Source of the DNA: a candidate division WOR-3 bacterium
GTDB taxonomy: Bacteria; Hydrothermota; Tepidihabitantia; Tepidihabitantales; Tepidihabitantaceae
DNA length: 45,742 nucleotides
Assembly (NCBI GenBank): GCA_039801225.1
Contig: JBDRUH010000010.1
Span: forward strand, 1 to 45,742
Direction of reading: 5' to 3'
The position numbers and the translations under genes were made by a program. Positions 324 through 45,742 of the stretch are shown piece by piece. Below the pieces are notes generated by a model. The model was not told the DNA's origin, did not search any database, and was given only the letters and a program-made list of their open reading frames with translations. Each line of letters starts with the position of its first letter. Within the stretch, counting starts at the first letter, position 1.

Positions 324-480
324 CCATCGCAAAAATTCTACCTATAGGTAGAAAAATAAGAAGGCGGTCCTGAGATGTTATTTTCCATATTTTCAATATG
401 TTAGGCGATTTTTACAGAATTTTAGACCCCAGCCCCTATACTGCCCCCTTTATAATTATTCCGGTTACCTCTTAAATTCC
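324..480. repeat. Copy A of a palindrome / 21-bp box / 12-bp-period element
   Basis: Perfect palindrome TTCTACCTATAGGTAGAA at 336-353 and box AGAATTTTAGACCCCAGCCCC at 416-436. Both are identical, inverted, to 29816-29833 and 29733-29753, with the same 62-nt spacing. Confidence 0.9.
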
Positions 481-6254: not shown

Positions 6255-7675
6255 TCAAGGAGTTTCAGACCGTCCAGTCTATTGCCGGTCCGCTTTTATT
6301 AGTTGAAGGGGTAGAAGGGGCTAAGTATGCCGAACTGGTAGAGATAACCCTGCCATCGGGTGAAAAAAGGCGCGGGCAGGTTTTGGAGGTGGAGAGAGAC
6401 CGGGCGCTTATCCAGGTTTTTGAAGGCACCAGGGGGGTTGATGTGGCTAGTGCAAGGGTGCGTTTTCTCGCTCGGGGGATTGAACTTTCCCTCTCCCCTG
6501 ATTTATTGGGCAGGGTTTTCAATGGATTGGGTGAGCCGCGCGACGGCGGACCGCCGCTCATTCCTGAGAAGCGGGCGGACATTAACGGCGCACCGATCAA
6601 CCCTTATGCCCGGGAATACCCGAATGAGTTCATCCAGACTGGAATTTCAGCAATTGATGGTTTAAACACCCTTGTCCGGGGTCAGAAACTGCCGATATTT
6701 TCTGGTACCGGTCTGCCTCACAACCGGCTGGCAGCCCAAATCGCACGACAGGCAACTGTTTTGGCCCACAGCCGCCCAAATCGGGCGCCCGATTCCGGGC
6801 GACAGCCAAAAGCCGACAGCCGGTTTGCGGTTGTTTTCGGCGCTATGGGCATTACCTTTGAGGAGGCGGAGTTCTTCATTCAGGATTTCACCCGCTCCGG
6901 GGCAATAGCAAGGACGGTCTCTTTTTTGAACCTGGCTAACGAGCCGGCGATTGAGCGTATCGCCACACCGCGCACCGCCCTTACCGCCGCAGAATACCTG
7001 GCGTTTGACTTGGGAATGCATGTGTTAGTTATTCTCACCGATATGACCAACTACTGTGAGGCGCTGCGCGAGATCGCCGCAGCAAGAAAGGAGATTCCGG
7101 GGCGGCGGGGTTTTCCTGGCTATCTTTACACCGACCTCGCCTCAATATATGAGCGCTGCGGGCGGATAAAAGGGCTCCCGGGCTCCATCACCCTGATGCC
7201 AATTCTGACAATGCCTGAAGACGATAAGACCCATCCAATTCCTGACCTCACCGGATATATCACCGAAGGGCAGATAATCTTGTCCCGGCCACTTTATCAC
7301 AAAGGGGTCGTCCCACCAATTGATGTCCTGCCCTCCCTTTCCCGGTTAAAGGACAAGGGGATTGGTGCCGGCAAGACGAGAGAAGACCATGCCGATCTAT
7401 TCAATCAGCTATACGCCTGCTATGCCCGGGGTAAAGAGGCGGAGGAGTTGCAGGTGATTCTGGGCGAGGCGGCGCTCTCGGATATGGACCGGGTTTATTT
7501 AAAGTTTGCCCGGATGTTTGAAGAACGCTACATCTCGCAAGGGGAGAACGAAAACCGTTCCATAGAACAGACGCTTAACTTGGGCTGGGAGCTCCTGCGG
7601 GTCTTTCCGCGCTCAGAACTCAAACGGGTGCGCGAGGCTTATATTGAGAAATACTACCAAAGTTCAAAAGCATAA
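6251..7675 (+). CDS. ntpB: V/A-type ATP synthase subunit B
   Basis: [54 protein letters not shown]. Confidence 0.97.
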
Positions 7676-9562: not shown

Positions 9563-9581
9563 ATAGTCGATGGGACATTCT

Positions 9582-9654
9582 GGCCCCATCGTCTAGCGGT
9601 TTAGGACATCACTCTTTCAAGGTGAAGGCACCGGTTCGACTCCGGTTGGGGCCA
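9582..9654 (+). tRNA. tRNA-Glu(TTC)
   Basis: Cloverleaf GGCCCCA..TGGGGCC; anticodon loop CT-TTC-AA; T-loop GTTCGACTC; CCA not encoded. Confidence 0.95.
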
Positions 9655-9657
9655 AAT

Positions 9658-9730
9658 GCGGGAGTAGCTCAGCTGGTAGAGCATCACCTTGCCAAGGTGG
9701 GGGTCGCGGGTTCAAATCCCGTCTCCCGCT
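9658..9730 (+). tRNA. tRNA-Gly(GCC)
   Basis: GCGGGAG..CTCCCGC acceptor stem; anticodon loop TT-GCC-AA. Confidence 0.96.
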
Positions 9731-9734
9731 TTCT

Positions 9735-9806
9735 GGCGGCATAGCCAAGTAGCAAGGCAGCGGTCTGCAAAACCGCAATACCGGGGTGCAAATCCCCGTG
9801 CCGCCT
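9735..9806 (+). tRNA. tRNA-Cys(GCA)
   Basis: GGCGGCA..TGCCGCC-T; anticodon loop CT-GCA-AA; atypical D and T loops. Confidence 0.92.
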
Positions 9807-9818
9807 TAATAAAAGAGC

Positions 9819-9904
9819 GCCGGGGTGGCGGAATAGGCAGACGCAAGGGACTTAAAATCCCTTGACCCGTTAGGGTCGTGCCGGTTCAACTCCGGCCTCC
9901 GGCA
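9819..9904 (+). tRNA. tRNA-Leu(TAA)
   Basis: GCCGGGG..CTCCGGC-A; anticodon loop CT-TAA-AA; long variable arm gacccgttagggtc. Confidence 0.95.
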
Positions 9905-9910
9905 TAAAGC

Positions 9911-9932
9911 GCAAACCTAAAGGTTTGCCCTA
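9911..9932 (-). repeat. GTAG-type REP-like palindrome
   Basis: GCAAACC-TAA-AGGTTTGCCCTA; near-identical copies at 26604, 37222 and 44609. Confidence 0.75.
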
Positions 9933-9954
9933 AATTTGAAATTTTACATTTGTT

Positions 9955-10027
9955 GGGCCGTTAGCTCAGTTGGCAGAGCACCTGGTTTTTAACCCGGTGG
10001 CCGCAGGTTCGAATCCTGCACGGCCCA
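9955..10027 (+). tRNA. tRNA-Lys(TTT)
   Basis: GGGCCGT..ACGGCCC-A; anticodon loop TT-TTT-AA; one T:C mismatch in the anticodon stem. Confidence 0.92.
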
Positions 10028-10075
10028 ATATAGGCAACCTTGCGGTTGCATAAGGTATAGTAGTAGAACAAAGAA

Positions 10076-27621: not shown

Positions 27622-28391
27622 TAAAAATCCTTGCGGTCAAAGACAATTACCGCTATCAAGAGAAGGGTAAAGGTATACAATAGAGAATAAAGAGCCGAAA
27701 ATACCATCGCCTGGGGGTTGAGAGGAACGCCGTAGACAACATCTCCCCGGATGTTAAAGTTGTTGAGATTTGGTAAAATAAAGTAAAGGAAAAGACTGAT
27801 AAATTTAATGAGCGGCAAGGGGGTCATAACCGCCAAATGTTTGAGTAAATGGGTACTGTGTCCGATAAAATAAATCATAAAGGTAAAAACCGCACTACCC
27901 ACCGGAGTAACAAAGGTGGAAAATAGCACCGCTACCGCGGTGAGTAAAATAAGTTCAAAAGCGGTCATAACTACCGCCCAAAGGAGATTAAATGTAATAG
28001 GAACTCGAGTGATTAATAGCACCGCATAAAACCCGACGGTCATAACCATTAGGCTGAGAATAAGGACGACGATGAGTCCGATGTATTTACCTAAAATAAA
28101 CTCGCCCCTTCGCACCGGTCGGGCAAGAATAAGATAAATGGTCCTTTTCTCAACCTCCCGGTATACAATCCTTCCTCCTATTAGAATGGCGATAAGAACG
28201 CAGAAGAGTGTTATCGCTGACAACCCCAGGTCCTTAATAATCTTCTCCGCCTCACCCATTGCCACCGGTTGAACCAATTTCGCCGTCCCCATCACCACAA
28301 TGGCAATAACGATCAGTGCTATTAGAATGCGGTCTCTAATCGCCTCGCGAAATGTATTGAGTGCCATACCGTATATGCGTTGGAGCATCAA
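27621..28391 (-). CDS. ABC-2 type permease (PilI-like)
   Basis: ALNTFREAIRDR; EVEKRTIYLILARPVRR; C-terminal FDRKDF. Confidence 0.88.
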   Translation of the reverse strand: MMLQRIYGMALNTFREAIRDRILIALIVIAIVVMGTAKLVQPVAMGEAEKIIKDLGLSAITLFCVLIAILIGGRIVYREVEKRTIYLILARPVRRGEFILGKYIGLIVVLILSLMVMTVGFYAVLLITRVPITFNLLWAVVMTAFELILLTAVAVLFSTFVTPVGSAVFTFMIYFIGHSTHLLKHLAVMTPLPLIKFISLFLYFILPNLNNFNIRGDVVYGVPLNPQAMVFSALYSLLYTFTLLLIAVIVFDRKDF

Positions 28392-29329
28392 TTCTCTCCT
28401 TTCACTTGACTCATAAAGAAGTCCTCCAGCGTCTTAACCCGGGGAACAATTGCAGTAATACGGACATCAGCCTCGCGAGCGATGCTCATAACCCGCTCCA
28501 CCTCCTCCTCATTTCTAACTGTCAGCATTAAAAGCTCCCCGGATTGCAGCGCCCGTTGCGCCACCCTTTCCAGCGCCTTGCGAATCTTTCCTGAGGCACC
28601 TTTCAAAGTTACATCAATCGATTCCACCTCGGCGGTGAGAATTTCCTTAAGCCTCCCCATTTTTACCATTCTTCCCGCCACTATCAGACCTACCCGGTCA
28701 CAGATCATCTCCACATCAGCAAGAATATGAGTAGAAAAGAAAACCGTCTTGCCTTGCTCCCGAAGACCGACAATAATGTCCCGAAACTCCTTCCGGCCGA
28801 TAGGGTCAAGCCCTCCCATCGGTTCATCCAATATCACCAGTTTTGGGTCATGAATTAGTGCTTGGGCAATTCCGATCCGCTGGAGCATCCCCCGGGAAAA
28901 TCCTCGCATCTGCAGATTTGCCGCATCCTCCATCCGCACCATTTTTAAAACCTCTTTCACCCGGTGTTTTATATCTACTCGGGGCACGCCAGAAATCTGT
29001 GCCGCCATCACCAGAAACTCTTGAGCGGTCAGATATTCATAAAAATATGGCGACTCCGGTAAAAACCCTACCTTTCTTTTTACCTGAGGGTTGCGCGGTG
29101 GCTTTCCCAAAATATATGCATAACCTCGGCTCGGTTTTGTTAAACCAACTAAGATTTTTATCGCGGTTGTCTTGCCGGCACCGTTCGGTCCGAGAAATCC
29201 AAAAATCTCACCCTCCTCCACCTGCAGATTCAGGTCAACCAGCGCCTGGACCCTTTTCATCCTCAATCCGGTTCGGTAGGTTTTACTCAAGCGAACCGTT
29301 TCTATTATCGGATGGCTTGCTACAGACAT
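28388..29329 (-). CDS. ABC transporter ATP-binding protein (PilH-like)
   Basis: GPNGAGKTT; FSRGMLQR; LDEPMGGLDP. Confidence 0.92.
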   Translation of the reverse strand: MSVASHPIIETVRLSKTYRTGLRMKRVQALVDLNLQVEEGEIFGFLGPNGAGKTTAIKILVGLTKPSRGYAYILGKPPRNPQVKRKVGFLPESPYFYEYLTAQEFLVMAAQISGVPRVDIKHRVKEVLKMVRMEDAANLQMRGFSRGMLQRIGIAQALIHDPKLVILDEPMGGLDPIGRKEFRDIIVGLREQGKTVFFSTHILADVEMICDRVGLIVAGRMVKMGRLKEILTAEVESIDVTLKGASGKIRKALERVAQRALQSGELLMLTVRNEEEVERVMSIAREADVRITAIVPRVKTLEDFFMSQVKGEN

Positions 29330-29415
29330 AACCCCTCCATTATAAAGGCAAAAGTTCTTATGTCAATGCTTTGTATAAATCAAATCCCTGTGCGACATTT
29401 TGTTTTTTCCCGCAA

Positions 29416-29448
29416 GCACTCTGCCCGATTCGGGTAGAGTGCCCTACA
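29416..29448 (-). repeat. GTAG-type REP-like palindrome (variant stem)
   Basis: TGTAGG-GCACTCTACCCGA-A-TCGGGCAGAGTGC on the minus strand. Confidence 0.65.
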
Positions 29449-29508
29449 AAGGAAGAACTAAAAACTATGAAATAACCTAATGGAGAAAATTGCCTATTTT
29501 CGCTCGCT

Positions 29509-29736
29509 ATAACAAAAGGGGTAATTGGTGGGGTTAAGAGGAGAATAATTCCGATGGTGATTTGGCGGGTTTTTAACAGTATTATTAAGCCAGTTATGTC
29601 CGTAATCAAAACCGGAGCGACTTAAAATATTACTACCAAAATTATTTTGGAGATAGTCTAAAGAACTATGTGCAGGGCGATTTTGGTGATTACATAAATT
29701 ATAACTTAACAGGTAATCAAGGGGGCTACCTGGGGG
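29509..29736 (+). repeat. Non-coding array of 19 degenerate 12-bp units (RYNAY-N7)
   Basis: Every 12 nt from 29509 the units start ataac, gtaat, gttaa, ataat, gtgat, gtttt, attat, gttat, atcaa, gcgac, attac, attat, atagt, actat, gcgat, attac, ataac, gtaat, gctac. Confidence 0.85.
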
Positions 29737-29845
29737 CTGGGGTCTAAAATTCTAAACAATTACTATAATGCTTTTAAAATTAAGGAGATAGCCAATAAAA
29801 ACCCTTTTGTAATTTTTCTACCTATAGGTAGAATTTTTTGCGTGG
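29719..29845. repeat. Copy B of the palindrome / 21-bp box element (inverted relative to copy A)
   Basis: GGGGCTGGGGTCTAAAATTCT at 29733-29753; TTCTACCTATAGGTAGAA at 29816-29833. Confidence 0.9.
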
Positions 29846-29930
29846 CAAAATAGCCCAAATCGCAACCTTTTTCTCAAACCTCACTATTCCTAATCTCGCA
29901 TATCTATCTTAACTTTTCCATTTGCGAGGT

Positions 29931-30025
29931 GCCTGCCCCGAGCGAACACCCGAATCGGGCTCGGCAAAGCCTGCCCCGAGCGAAAGGATTCCTCCACTCG
30001 CCGTTGGCTCGGTCGGAATGACGGA
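29931..30025. repeat. Composite REP-like repeat
   Basis: 16-bp direct repeat GCCTGCCCCGAGCGAA (29931-29946 and 29969-29984), a CCCGAATCGGG hairpin and a GATTCCTC..CGGAATGAC motif. Confidence 0.6.
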
Positions 30026-30130
30026 GCCGAGGGGACCGTCTTTCCTCTATGTAATTCGTCAAGGAACACGGGGCACGGTTACGGACTGCCGTCTTCAGCC
30101 TTTCCACCCAGAACCGAGGTGGGTCGGAAT

Positions 30131-30163
30131 AAAAGAAAAAGGGGTGGTCTATTTGACCACCCC
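30131..30163 (-). terminator. Intrinsic terminator of the major pilin gene
   Basis: Minus strand GGGGTGGTC-AAATA-GACCACCCC-TTTTTCTTTT, 16 nt after the stop codon. Confidence 0.85.
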
Positions 30164-30179
30164 AAAACGGTATTGAGGT

Positions 30180-30815
30180 TTAGTTATGCAAAACGAAGAA
30201 AATCCACGACTCTTCGTCCTGTGGGTCGTCGGCAAGAGGAGTCAGGTCATACATCGGATAGGTAACATCACGACCGAAACCGTAAATCCCATACTCCTGT
30301 GGCGCCTCTAAGCCGAATGCTGGTAAGTAGGTGGCAATGCCAATACCGCCCGGATACTCAGGCGTTCCGCCAAAGTCTACATATGGACAATCATCATCAG
30401 CACCTCGGATCCGGGCATTTGCTCCTGGCTCAAGTTCGCCATAGAACGACTCGTAATCTAAGTCCATCTCATCTTTCTCGTCGTCGTTGTAACGCATACC
30501 GTCATAAGGGTTAACCGGAAAGTTCCCCGGTTTTGGTTCACCCTCTATGCCGATTGGGTCGCCACCCGGAAACCACAGGCAGATACCAGTTTCATCACCC
30601 GCTTCCCAAGAAAGGTCCTCAGTAGGATAATTGCCGTAATGGTCAACCGCATAAGCCTCAAGCGCTGTCTGAATCACATGCATATTGTTCTTTACTGAGG
30701 AACGACGCGCCCGCTCCTGGAAAAGGACGAAGTTGGGAATGATGAGTGCTAACAGGATACCGATAATCAGAATTACCACCAGTAACTCAATCAGGGTGAA
30801 GCCTCGATTCTTCAT
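30180..30815 (-). CDS. Probable major type IV pilin (PilA-like)
   Basis: MKNRG|FTLIELLVV; strong SD GAGGAGGTG; own promoter and terminator, so monocistronic. Confidence 0.88.
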   Translation of the reverse strand: MKNRGFTLIELLVVILIIGILLALIIPNFVLFQERARRSSVKNNMHVIQTALEAYAVDHYGNYPTEDLSWEAGDETGICLWFPGGDPIGIEGEPKPGNFPVNPYDGMRYNDDEKDEMDLDYESFYGELEPGANARIRGADDDCPYVDFGGTPEYPGGIGIATYLPAFGLEAPQEYGIYGFGRDVTYPMYDLTPLADDPQDEESWIFFVLHN

Positions 30816-44797: not shown

Positions 44798-45742
44798 ATG
44801 CCGCAGCGAAAAAGAATTAACATATTAAAACAACTCCTTGAACCGGAGATAATTGACACTATTAAGGAGAAGGACTGGCATACGCTCAAGGACCTTCTCG
44901 CCCAGTGGCCGGCACCGGACATTGCCGATTTACTCTCTACATTGAAAGACCCGGAGACGGTGATTGTCTTCCGGTTACTGCCTAAAGATTTACAGTCCGA
45001 GGTTTTTGCCGAGTTTGACCCGGACACCCAGTTAACCCTGATTAAAAACTTAACTGACGAACAGGTCAAATCATTGATTGCCGAACTGGCGCCGGACGAC
45101 CGCACCGAACTTTTTGAAGACCTGCCACCAGAACTGATTCAGCGGGCGCTCAACCTCCTTTCCCCTGAAGACCGCCGCGAAACACTTTTAGCCCTGGGCT
45201 TTCCGGAAAATAGCGTTGGTCGGTTGCTCACGCCCGATTATGTTACCGTCTCTCCCGATTGGACGGTGCGCCAGGCGCTGGAGCACATCCGCAAAAACGG
45301 CGTTGATGCCGAAACAATTAACACCATCTATGTGGTGGACGAAAAAAGAAGGCTACTGGACGACATCCCTTTAAGAAAACTGATTCTCGCCACAAGCGAG
45401 GAAAAGATTGCCCAGTTGATGGACAACCAGTTTGTCTCGGTTGAGGCGAACACCGACCAGGAGGAGGCGGCAAGGGTGATGCACCGCTACGACCTCCTCG
45501 CCCTGCCGGTTGTCAACTCGGAAGGTGTCATCTTGGGGATTGTAACCATTGACGACATTATGGATGTTTTGCGCGAAGAGCAGACCGAAGACATCACCAA
45601 GATTTCCGGTATTCATCCCGGTAAAATTGACCTGACCTTCATTACCAAACTCCGCGAGGTCCCGCTGCGACTTTTGTATCGCAGCCGGGTTGTCTGGCTT
45701 CTCGCCCTCATGATTATGGACCTCATCACCGGCGGTATAATT
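44798..45742 (+). CDS. mgtE: Magnesium transporter MgtE (3' end outside window)
   Basis: Own translation: WPAPDIADLL..LAPDDRTELFEDLP..FPENSVGRLLTPDYV..AETINTIYVVD..YDLLALPVV..GIVTIDDIMD..SRVVWL. Absent from the ORF track because there is no stop in the window. Confidence 0.93.
   Translation, partial: MPQRKRINILKQLLEPEIIDTIKEKDWHTLKDLLAQWPAPDIADLLSTLKDPETVIVFRLLPKDLQSEVFAEFDPDTQLTLIKNLTDEQVKSLIAELAPDDRTELFEDLPPELIQRALNLLSPEDRRETLLALGFPENSVGRLLTPDYVTVSPDWTVRQALEHIRKNGVDAETINTIYVVDEKRRLLDDIPLRKLILATSEEKIAQLMDNQFVSVEANTDQEEAARVMHRYDLLALPVVNSEGVILGIVTIDDIMDVLREEQTEDITKISGIHPGKIDLTFITKLREVPLRLLYRSRVVWLLALMIMDLITGGII

Follow-up and report, generated by a model that had tools for sequence, protein, structure and literature searches.

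A 12-bp-phased array is the variable arm of a multicopy non-coding cassette in candidate division WOR-3 genomes

What is a stretch of non-coding DNA that keeps a strict 12-bp rhythm in units that share little sequence? We address this question for an array at positions 29509-29736 of a 45,742-nt stretch of DNA from a candidate division WOR-3 bacterium (contig JBDRUH010000010.1 of assembly GCA_039801225.1), which we call the window. A first-pass annotation made from the letters alone had described the array as non-coding, 12-bp-periodic and anchored to a conserved box and a palindrome. We find that it is the variable arm of a non-coding cassette of about 350 bp, made up of about 19-20 phased units, a G-rich box (G-box), a spacer of fixed length and an 18-bp palindrome. 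Five related WOR-3 genomes carry 14-26 copies of this cassette each, and it occurs nowhere else in the order at comparable strength; 66 genomes of the order were compared, including the window genome (G000; 72 contigs, 88.8% complete). We tentatively read it as a regulator-linked promoter and operator cassette that has spread among promoter regions and whose phased arm, the array, most likely serves as a DNA scaffold; as a whole we hold this reading to be plausible, if a little short of probable.

A phased array anchored to a conserved module

The window array divides into 19 consecutive 12-mers without a single indel. A purine occupies unit position 1 and a pyrimidine position 2 in all 19 units, position 4 is A in 17 and position 5 is a pyrimidine in 17, exactly the counts first reported. 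These four positions hold most of the column information, and both final units (18 and 19) end in GGGG. The rhythm stands well above shuffled sequence: column information at period 12 has a z-score of 13.3 (300 shuffles), followed by periods 24 (8.7) and 6 (6.1), with periods 10, 11, 13 and 14 between -1.7 and 0.1, and none of 500 dinucleotide shuffles matched the Fourier power at period 12. Tandem Repeats Finder returned no rows for the array at a minimum score of 30, which indicates that the units are dissimilar outside the motif. An ordinary tandem repeat, an iteron set and a CRISPR array were rejected on these grounds.

The register of the array is fixed relative to the G-box, and the palindrome follows at a fixed spacing, so that the proposed anchoring to a box and a palindrome stands. 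Together the G-runs, G-box, spacer and palindrome form a module that is 123-127 nt long in all 73 copies that we collected and exactly 125 nt long in 48 of them. The G-box is found in all 14 copies of the window genome, and relatives carry GGGGTCT or a one-base variant of it. From the start of the G-box to the start of the palindrome the window copy measures 83 nt; among the eight of the 14 copies for which this distance was read, it is 83 nt in seven and 82 nt in the copy on contig C1. By our own reckoning, this spacing would come close to seven array units (84 bp). In an alignment of 25 modules from four genomes and one metagenome contig (A1), the spacer columns TAA at 29766-29768, T at 29774, A at 29776 and T at 29789 are invariant. 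The box and the perfect palindrome of the first-pass annotation are both confirmed. The site resembling a target of integration host factor (IHF) that it placed at 29766-29791 does not match the IHF consensus pattern that we searched; the whole window holds one match to that pattern, at 45067, versus 1.93 expected by chance.

The element proved to be multicopy in the genome and in some of its relatives. The window genome holds exactly 14 pairs of palindrome and G-box, and the segment 29509-29920 has seven further full-length copies there, giving eight full copies, along with six partial ones. The full-length copies are 76-91% identical. A second module lies in the window itself and had been overlooked (Table 1). 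A covariance-model search returned strong multicopy modules in G000 (14 copies), G001 (14), G011 (19), G052 (26) and G053 (23), and found the module weak or absent in the other 61 genomes of the order. Across 185,579 species genomes, the exact palindrome occurs at ten loci, one in a G053 record and nine, from eight records, in unrelated lineages. The combined pattern of box and palindrome was found at one locus in metagenome contigs.

We further note that the rhythm extends across this family of copies. In the 240 bp upstream of the G-box, surveyed in 68 of the 73 modules (five with less than 220 nt upstream were excluded), period 12 exceeds a z-score of 3 in 42 copies from the five genomes, all in one shared register. 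At the same threshold, the control periods 10, 11 and 14 are found in none of the 68 and period 13 in one. The 12-bp periodicity and the G-box register are also kept in copies whose upstream arm is unrelated in sequence, and one such unrelated array family, in G053, has a cleaner rhythm (z up to 22.6). Similarly, arrays at orthologous loci can generally not be aligned, and the register is kept in most of them; at the locus upstream of the regulator gene described below, the arrays are unalignable between genomes and differ in strand composition, and four of the five are rhythmic. Unit profiles pooled over the five genomes show A depleted at position 2 and enriched at position 4, and pyrimidines enriched at position 5. 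Purines are enriched at position 1, weakly or not at all in G001 and G052, where the shared unit signature is faint.

A genome-wide scan of G000 for 15-unit arrays returned ten loci, nine of which adjoin a module. The tenth, at about 7150-7450 on the minus strand of contig C55, has 17 units of an ATCACC/ATTACC type and no standard module; the G-rich box that comes before it is laid out differently. It had also been proposed that the array is extended unit by unit. This is not borne out: the eight full copies differ by no indel of whole 12-nt units, and the G053 family with 20 units rather than the 19 of the window is unrelated in sequence. Contigs from four metagenome runs likewise showed no insertion or deletion inside the array, a weak check that covers contigs only.

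Table 1. Features of the cassette and its surroundings, in window coordinates
Feature	Positions	Strand	Remarks
19-unit array	29509..29736	none	R-Y-N-A-Y (R, purine; Y, pyrimidine) at unit positions 1-5; remainder variable, purine-rich on the plus strand
Conserved 125-bp module	29717..29841	+	G-runs, G-box, spacer, palindrome; full-length match to covariance model R1, E 7.2e-23
G-box core GGGGCTGGGGTCT	29733..29745	+	preceded by more G-runs, from 29721; array register anchored here
AT-rich spacer	29746..29815	none	fixed length, moderately conserved
Perfect 18-bp palindrome TTCTACCTATAGGTAGAA	29816..29833	none	AT-rich, flanked by T-runs; putative operator
Sigma-70-like promoter match TTGTAA-16-TAGAAT	29807..29834	+	-10 hexamer is the right palindrome arm
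Weaker leftward promoter-like match TTTAAA-18-TAGAAT	29749..29778	-	transcripts would begin at the C-rich complement of the G-box
Right-hand extension	29850..29920	none	common to only four copies (C10, C3, C2, C15)
ABC transporter ATPase gene	28388..29329	-	array side, transcribed away from the element
Sigma-70-like promoter match of the ABC transporter gene	29366-29339		12/12 match
Pilin-like gene	30180..30815	-	palindrome side; N-terminal methylation motif
Terminator-like hairpin by the pilin-like gene	30141-30163		
Second module copy	328..452	-	upstream arm weakly periodic, z 2.5 at period 12

A linked regulator gene and the placement of the copies

The distribution of the module is matched by that of one protein-coding gene. 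Among the 66 genomes, orthologues of this gene product at 45% identity or more are found in G000, G001, G011, G052 and G053 only, exactly the five genomes with strong multicopy modules, and in all five a module copy abuts the gene. G020 and G051, which belong to the same genus as G011, have neither the module nor an orthologue. In G000 the gene encodes 371 aa (C45:11721-12833) and begins directly after one module copy; the G001 orthologue, 51% identical, has the same position.

The protein matches PF13560 weakly, with an E-value of 6.1e-6 (26.9 bits versus a cut-off of 27), and PF13560 is precomputed on four of its five database relatives. Its N-terminal 75 or so residues superpose on solved XRE-type domains with a probability of 1.0 and root-mean-square deviations of 2.0-3.2. 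By sequence and predicted structure, the linked protein is accordingly classed as an XRE-family helix-turn-helix (HTH) regulator. The structural model (mean pLDDT 88.8) is all-helical, and beyond the HTH domain it holds about 290 further helical residues with no clear fold match; a fold search against the PDB returned nothing at E <= 0.001 and no enzyme-like match. In a collection of 5.8 billion proteins, the regulator has five relatives, one of them labelled as originating from a candidate division WOR-3 bacterium. The regulator family is lineage-specific, with distant paralogues giving 15-19 matches in some relatives such as G059, G065 and G063; these genomes, of family f1, have an expanded regulator family and no module.

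The junction between module and regulator gene is closely conserved. In the five genomes, exactly 7 nt separate the start codon from a preceding -10-like hexamer (TAGAAT, TATACT or TTAAAT) taken from the right palindrome arm, and a TTGNNN hexamer stands 15-16 nt upstream. A leaderless gene under its own control has this arrangement. Within most genomes the palindrome arms hardly vary, and they differ between some of the genomes: TCTAC in 13 of 14 copies in G000 (CCTAC in one) and in most of 13 in G001, TTAAC in 16/16 in G011, TATAC in 19/21 in G052, and in G053 TTAAC in five and TCTAC in four. G011 and G053 have in common both the TTAAC arms and the helix segment GYYVLLHRLE. With its two palindrome types, G053 (a bin 91% complete in 290 contigs) yielded one regulator orthologue; either a second regulator is missing from the bin, or the bin is mixed. 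Downstream of one further G000 module, on contig C37, lies a piece of the HTH gene that spans 37 residues and is 84% identical (C37:12961-13071), which indicates that this copy was duplicated from the regulator locus along with the start of the gene. DNA methyltransferases also adjoin modules: one of N6_N4 type comes after the G000 regulator gene (C45:12876-13149), and an HsdM-type methylase follows a module on contig C30 of G011 (locus L114:1797-3125).

At the window locus the cassette stands between an ABC transporter gene and a pilin-like gene. The gap between these two genes is about 850 bp here versus 47-109 bp in five relatives, and by this comparison the element is an insertion relative to them. 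The neighbours of the copies are unrelated housekeeping genes, including besides the ABC transporter the rpsP operon, hsp20, grpE-dnaK, gap-pgk-tpi, fabH, glmM, ndk, IMPDH, H+-pyrophosphatase and gidA. A heat-shock regulon was considered and dropped, as hsp20 and grpE-dnaK adjoin two copies and the remaining neighbours are unrelated to them. Where open reading frames (ORFs) of at least 90 aa flank a copy on both sides (59 copies), 27 pairs are divergent, 28 tandem and four convergent. On the array side, genes run away from the module in 45 cases and toward it in 23 (68 copies), and the palindrome side is similar, with 42 and 22.

These observations are consistent with a regulatory cassette. 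In the arrangement that we propose, the palindrome would be the operator of the HTH regulator and would cover the spacer and -10 element of a sigma-70-type promoter firing away from the array. At the regulator's own gene this promoter would give a leaderless, self-controlled transcript. Copies of the cassette would have been gained or retained in the intergenic DNA on the promoter side of housekeeping operons, which would put these operons under the same regulator.

The same dispersal could reflect a selfish, non-autonomous mobile element, with the HTH protein as its partner or as a domesticated remnant, and with an array that resembles the multiple protein-binding sites in some transposon ends. 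We judge this to be unlikely. It would account for the copy number, the insertion at the window locus relative to five relatives and a patchy occurrence within one genus, where the cassette is gained or lost along with the HTH gene. A palindrome that is homogeneous in most genomes and differs between some would fit as well, as would the HTH gene fragment at the C37 copy. However, no terminal inverted repeats or target duplications, the marks of a MITE, were seen at four copy boundaries, inspected by eye with no dedicated search, and the 88.8%-complete G000 has no match to Y1 transposase (PF01797) or TnpB (PF07282), both of which were detected in control genomes. The HTH protein, predicted to be all-helical, has no enzyme-like fold match, and the G000 copies are only 76-91% identical. 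Long residence is further suggested by copies at orthologous sites. One lies between gap and fabH in both G000 (C36) and G001 (C2:184606-184730), in the same orientation; a G052 copy (C1:28015-28138) adjoins gap, with no fabH called on its other side; and the DegT/PEBP region has a copy in two or three genomes. Copies at such sites would be old and retained, though their palindromes have changed along with each genome.

More specific mobile origins were also considered. In the window copy, the left end and the stretch ahead of the palindrome share a 9-bp inverted match; it is absent from most other copies and was discarded as a terminal inverted repeat. Derivation from IS200/IS605 elements (PATE or ends bearing omega-RNA) was rejected given the missing Y1 and TnpB matches in G000, and a palindrome hairpin ending a guide-RNA scaffold of the Cas12/TnpB type, suggested by a possible likeness to the hairpin of Cas12a repeats, was dropped for the same reason.

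With its strong palindrome beside a phased array, the element is reminiscent of short-iteron partition sites on plasmids, and the first-pass annotation had suggested a centromere-like, origin-like or recombination-accessory site. We consider such a role in chromosome maintenance to be extremely improbable. One copy does lie about 400 bp downstream of dnaA. Apart from this, the 14 copies of the window genome, like the 14-26 of the other genomes, are dispersed beside unrelated housekeeping genes, and none adjoins a gene for partition, for replication or for a recombinase; the copies show a bias to the promoter side of genes, and the array units are not iterons, as the silence of Tandem Repeats Finder indicates.

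A GC-rich hairpin repeat of about 70 nt at 29960-30034 has more than 20 further matches in the genome at 76-97% identity. A dispersed motif of about 45-57 nt at 29351-29418, with TGTCGCACAGGGATTTGA on the minus strand, occurs in at least eight places in the genome, often in the interval from a module copy to where the adjacent gene starts, by good sigma-70-like promoter matches. Five clustered tRNA genes (Glu, Gly, Cys, Leu, Lys) lie at 9581-10028.

Peptide, RNA or duplex DNA

The array could be a degenerate or cryptic coding sequence for a tetrapeptide repeat, reading x-x-[NDSH]-[YNSH] in the minus frame or [IVTA]-[IT]-x-x in the plus frame. The plus in-register frame of the window array contains four stops, all TAA, as the first-pass annotation stated. 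The minus in-register frame, which it described as interrupted, is in fact open across 85 codons (29751 to 29497) and contains no ATG, GTG or TTG. This openness follows from the motif, which makes two of every four codons NRT or NRY, never stops, and by a hand estimate from the unit counts the chance of an open frame without selection is about 1/3. The minus in-register frame is also open across the array in six of the eight full copies, ATG-started ORFs of 134-138 aa are present in two of them, some G053 and G011 copies have at least 75 open codons in the plus in-register frame, and period 3 is strong in 37 of the 68 arrays, all of which would suit a repeat protein.

These points are outweighed by the pattern of conservation. 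No frame is open throughout all 14 copies of the window genome, paralogous copies share the array positions of their stops in two frames, the plus in-register one and another minus frame, and array family L069 keeps its rhythm intact despite numerous stops in the plus in-register frame. Conservation by codon position over the eight full copies is flat (0.751/0.758/0.731), so that third positions are conserved as well as the others and substitutions have no 3-base periodicity; the best-conserved array columns are unit positions 2-5. A tetrapeptide-repeat gene or pseudogene, which fails on the missing start codon of the window copy, the lack of a universally open frame and the flat codon positions, is therefore very unlikely, and the periodicity is best placed, as first suggested, at the level of nucleic acid rather than peptide. 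A small peptide over the C-rich complement of the box (frame ...ILDPSP...AP...) was also rejected: its start codon is inconsistent, the frame stops after 6-12 more codons in 11 of the 14 copies, and conservation is at the nucleotide level.

The main rival to a DNA scaffold is a transcribed leader, or more generally an array that acts as RNA. It could be a leftward 5' leader of about 250-300 nt for the array-side gene, driven by a promoter within the module and starting at the C-rich complement of the G-box, or the body of a plus-strand RNA terminated by the palindrome hairpin and T-run; the rhythm would then space sites for an RNA-binding protein or for ribosomes. We consider this possible, though more doubtful than not. 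The module does contain a leftward promoter-like match, and the array-side gene most often runs away from it, with a start that is commonly 250-340 nt from the module (294 nt for the gap operon), a gap that the array almost fills. On the plus strand, the palindrome is followed by T6 and thus also resembles an intrinsic terminator. Folding of the whole element is somewhat better than that of shuffles on the minus strand (z -2.18), and the arrays have a strong G/C strand skew.

Several observations run counter to this. The leftward -10-like hexamer is, in our reading of the alignments, not retained in the G011 copies, and several array-side genes have a promoter match of their own, as does the ABC transporter operon. 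Array composition flips among copies regardless of gene orientation. RNAalifold found no conserved structure in the spacer; its sole consensus helix is the palindrome (seven pairs, three with changes on both sides between genomes), and whole-element folding is unremarkable on the plus strand (z -0.97). A structured RNA was rejected on this basis. Rho loading on a C-rich RNA was likewise rejected, the strand skew not tracking the orientation of neighbouring genes. As for Shine-Dalgarno-like repeats, pairing energy with a generic anti-Shine-Dalgarno tail (the assembly has no 16S gene) is phased, but the count of strong sites is near that of shuffled sequence (6/17 vs 2.2 at L021, 9/17 vs 9.3 at L115, 9/17 vs 6.1 at L188), so that the pairing mostly reflects base composition.

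The plus strand of the array is G-rich in some copies and C-rich in others, independently of the orientation of the neighbouring gene (13 away and 6 toward versus 28 and 11). This indifference of strand skew to gene orientation argues against a strand-specific RNA role and for a reading of the array as duplex DNA. As duplex, the array would present one kinkable R-Y-N-R-Y site every 12 bp in a register fixed to the G-box; we infer that each unit would thereby offer one flexible pyrimidine-purine step flanked by purine-pyrimidine steps. The array may then be a scaffold or ruler on which proteins assemble, with nucleation at the end that holds the G-box and palindrome and spreading over about 230 bp; this is the weakest step of the proposed mechanism.

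A number of findings weigh against this DNA scaffold and the regulatory cassette around it. The regulator's own operator half-site is not enriched in the arrays and is depleted in those of G000, G001 and G052 (in G000, three CTAC versus 8.5 expected and one GTAG versus 12.2 expected), which suggests that a filament, if any, would not form through an HTH domain reading repeated half-sites. In our reading, the motif is symmetric at the purine/pyrimidine level only and not as complementary bases. Little or no period-12 signal is present in 26 of the 68 copies, and it is weak in most G001 and many G052 copies. Periods 3 and 6 exceed a z-score of 3 in 37 and 36 of the 68, respectively, which a pure 12-bp DNA ruler does not predict. 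The palindrome with its T-run fits an intrinsic terminator on the plus strand as well as an operator. Finally, G000 and G001 have the same TCTAC arms and different recognition-helix segments, so that the co-variation of arms and helix rests on very few independent cases. An array of tandem operator half-sites was also tried as a candidate, and rejected on the half-site counts.

Relation to known systems and implications

The whole window was searched against Rfam at gathering score, and only five tRNAs matched; at an E-value threshold, the best matches in 29300-30200 reached 13.7-20.7 bits versus cut-offs of 41-80. The first-pass annotation had not recognised the element as a named family, and none matched among Rfam, TnpB and Y1 transposase. 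Searches of full-text literature and of Rfam gave no account of an array that keeps a 12-bp phase with free sequence and is tied to a conserved box. The cassette resembles known dispersed regulatory cassettes, and its phased arm is without a known counterpart.

The linked gene invites comparison with autoregulated repressors of the XRE/Cro-CI type, which have a palindromic operator over their own promoter. The N-terminal HTH, the palindrome over spacer and -10, and the start codon 7 nt after the -10, which implies a leaderless mRNA, are alike. Here, by contrast, about 290 extra helical residues follow the HTH, and the operator occurs 14-26 times per genome within a larger cassette. The peptide-sensing RRNPP regulators (PrgX, ComR, Rgg) join an HTH to a TPR-like peptide-binding domain and have a small peptide gene next to them. 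The order of HTH and helical domain and the size are also theirs, and PrgX and ComR head the whole-chain Foldseek matches; these matches are weak (E 0.02-0.15, TM 0.15-0.21), and no convincing peptide gene or consistent small ORF was found here.

REP, BIME and REPIN sequences, whose short tagged palindromes are GC-rich and which lie mostly at gene 3' ends, are similarly dispersed, multicopy, intergenic and palindrome-bearing. They were rejected as an identification for the cassette, which has an AT-rich palindrome inside a 125-bp module, no RAYT-type Y1 transposase, a promoter-side preference (four convergent sites among 59) and a phased array that has no counterpart there. In type III plasmid partition, 12-bp iterons are bound by a polymerising DNA-binding protein. 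The regular short spacing, the polarity and the idea of a DNA-nucleated filament are shared with the array; its units, however, have in common only a 5-base purine/pyrimidine pattern, and its copies are many, chromosomal and without partition genes nearby.

Reused or "mobile" promoters, near-identical upstream regions found before unrelated genes, are described in one report (PMC3575422). As in that account, a conserved upstream region with a promoter match precedes non-homologous genes in a few related genomes, which offers a route to place many operons under one regulator. With copies 76-91% identical before unrelated genes and with promoter-like matches, the cassette would qualify as a reused promoter by its sequence. 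It differs from those described there in its length of about 350 bp, the fixed geometry of G-box and palindrome, the sequence-free 12-bp arm and the strict co-occurrence with one regulator.

Selection on phase, with sequence and strand composition turning over completely, suggests that the DNA or RNA is read by its structure, through a filament, a wrapped particle or a spacing ruler. In its boldest form, which we regard as rather unlikely, the array would be a sequence-free ruler: only the 12-bp purine/pyrimidine pattern would be selected, in a register fixed to a G-rich nucleation box, and a filament or wrapped particle of about 20 units (about 240 bp) would form beside a regulator-controlled promoter. 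The entire device would have been installed 14-26 times per genome before core operons such as gap-pgk-tpi, grpE-dnaK, hsp20 and rpsP. If true, this would add a new, chromatin-like type to the promoter architectures of bacteria. If the broader reading of a regulator-linked cassette holds, a small, uncultivated hot-spring clade of WOR-3 would have wired many of its housekeeping operons to one lineage-specific regulator, and the cassette would be a clear natural example of regulon growth through promoter propagation.

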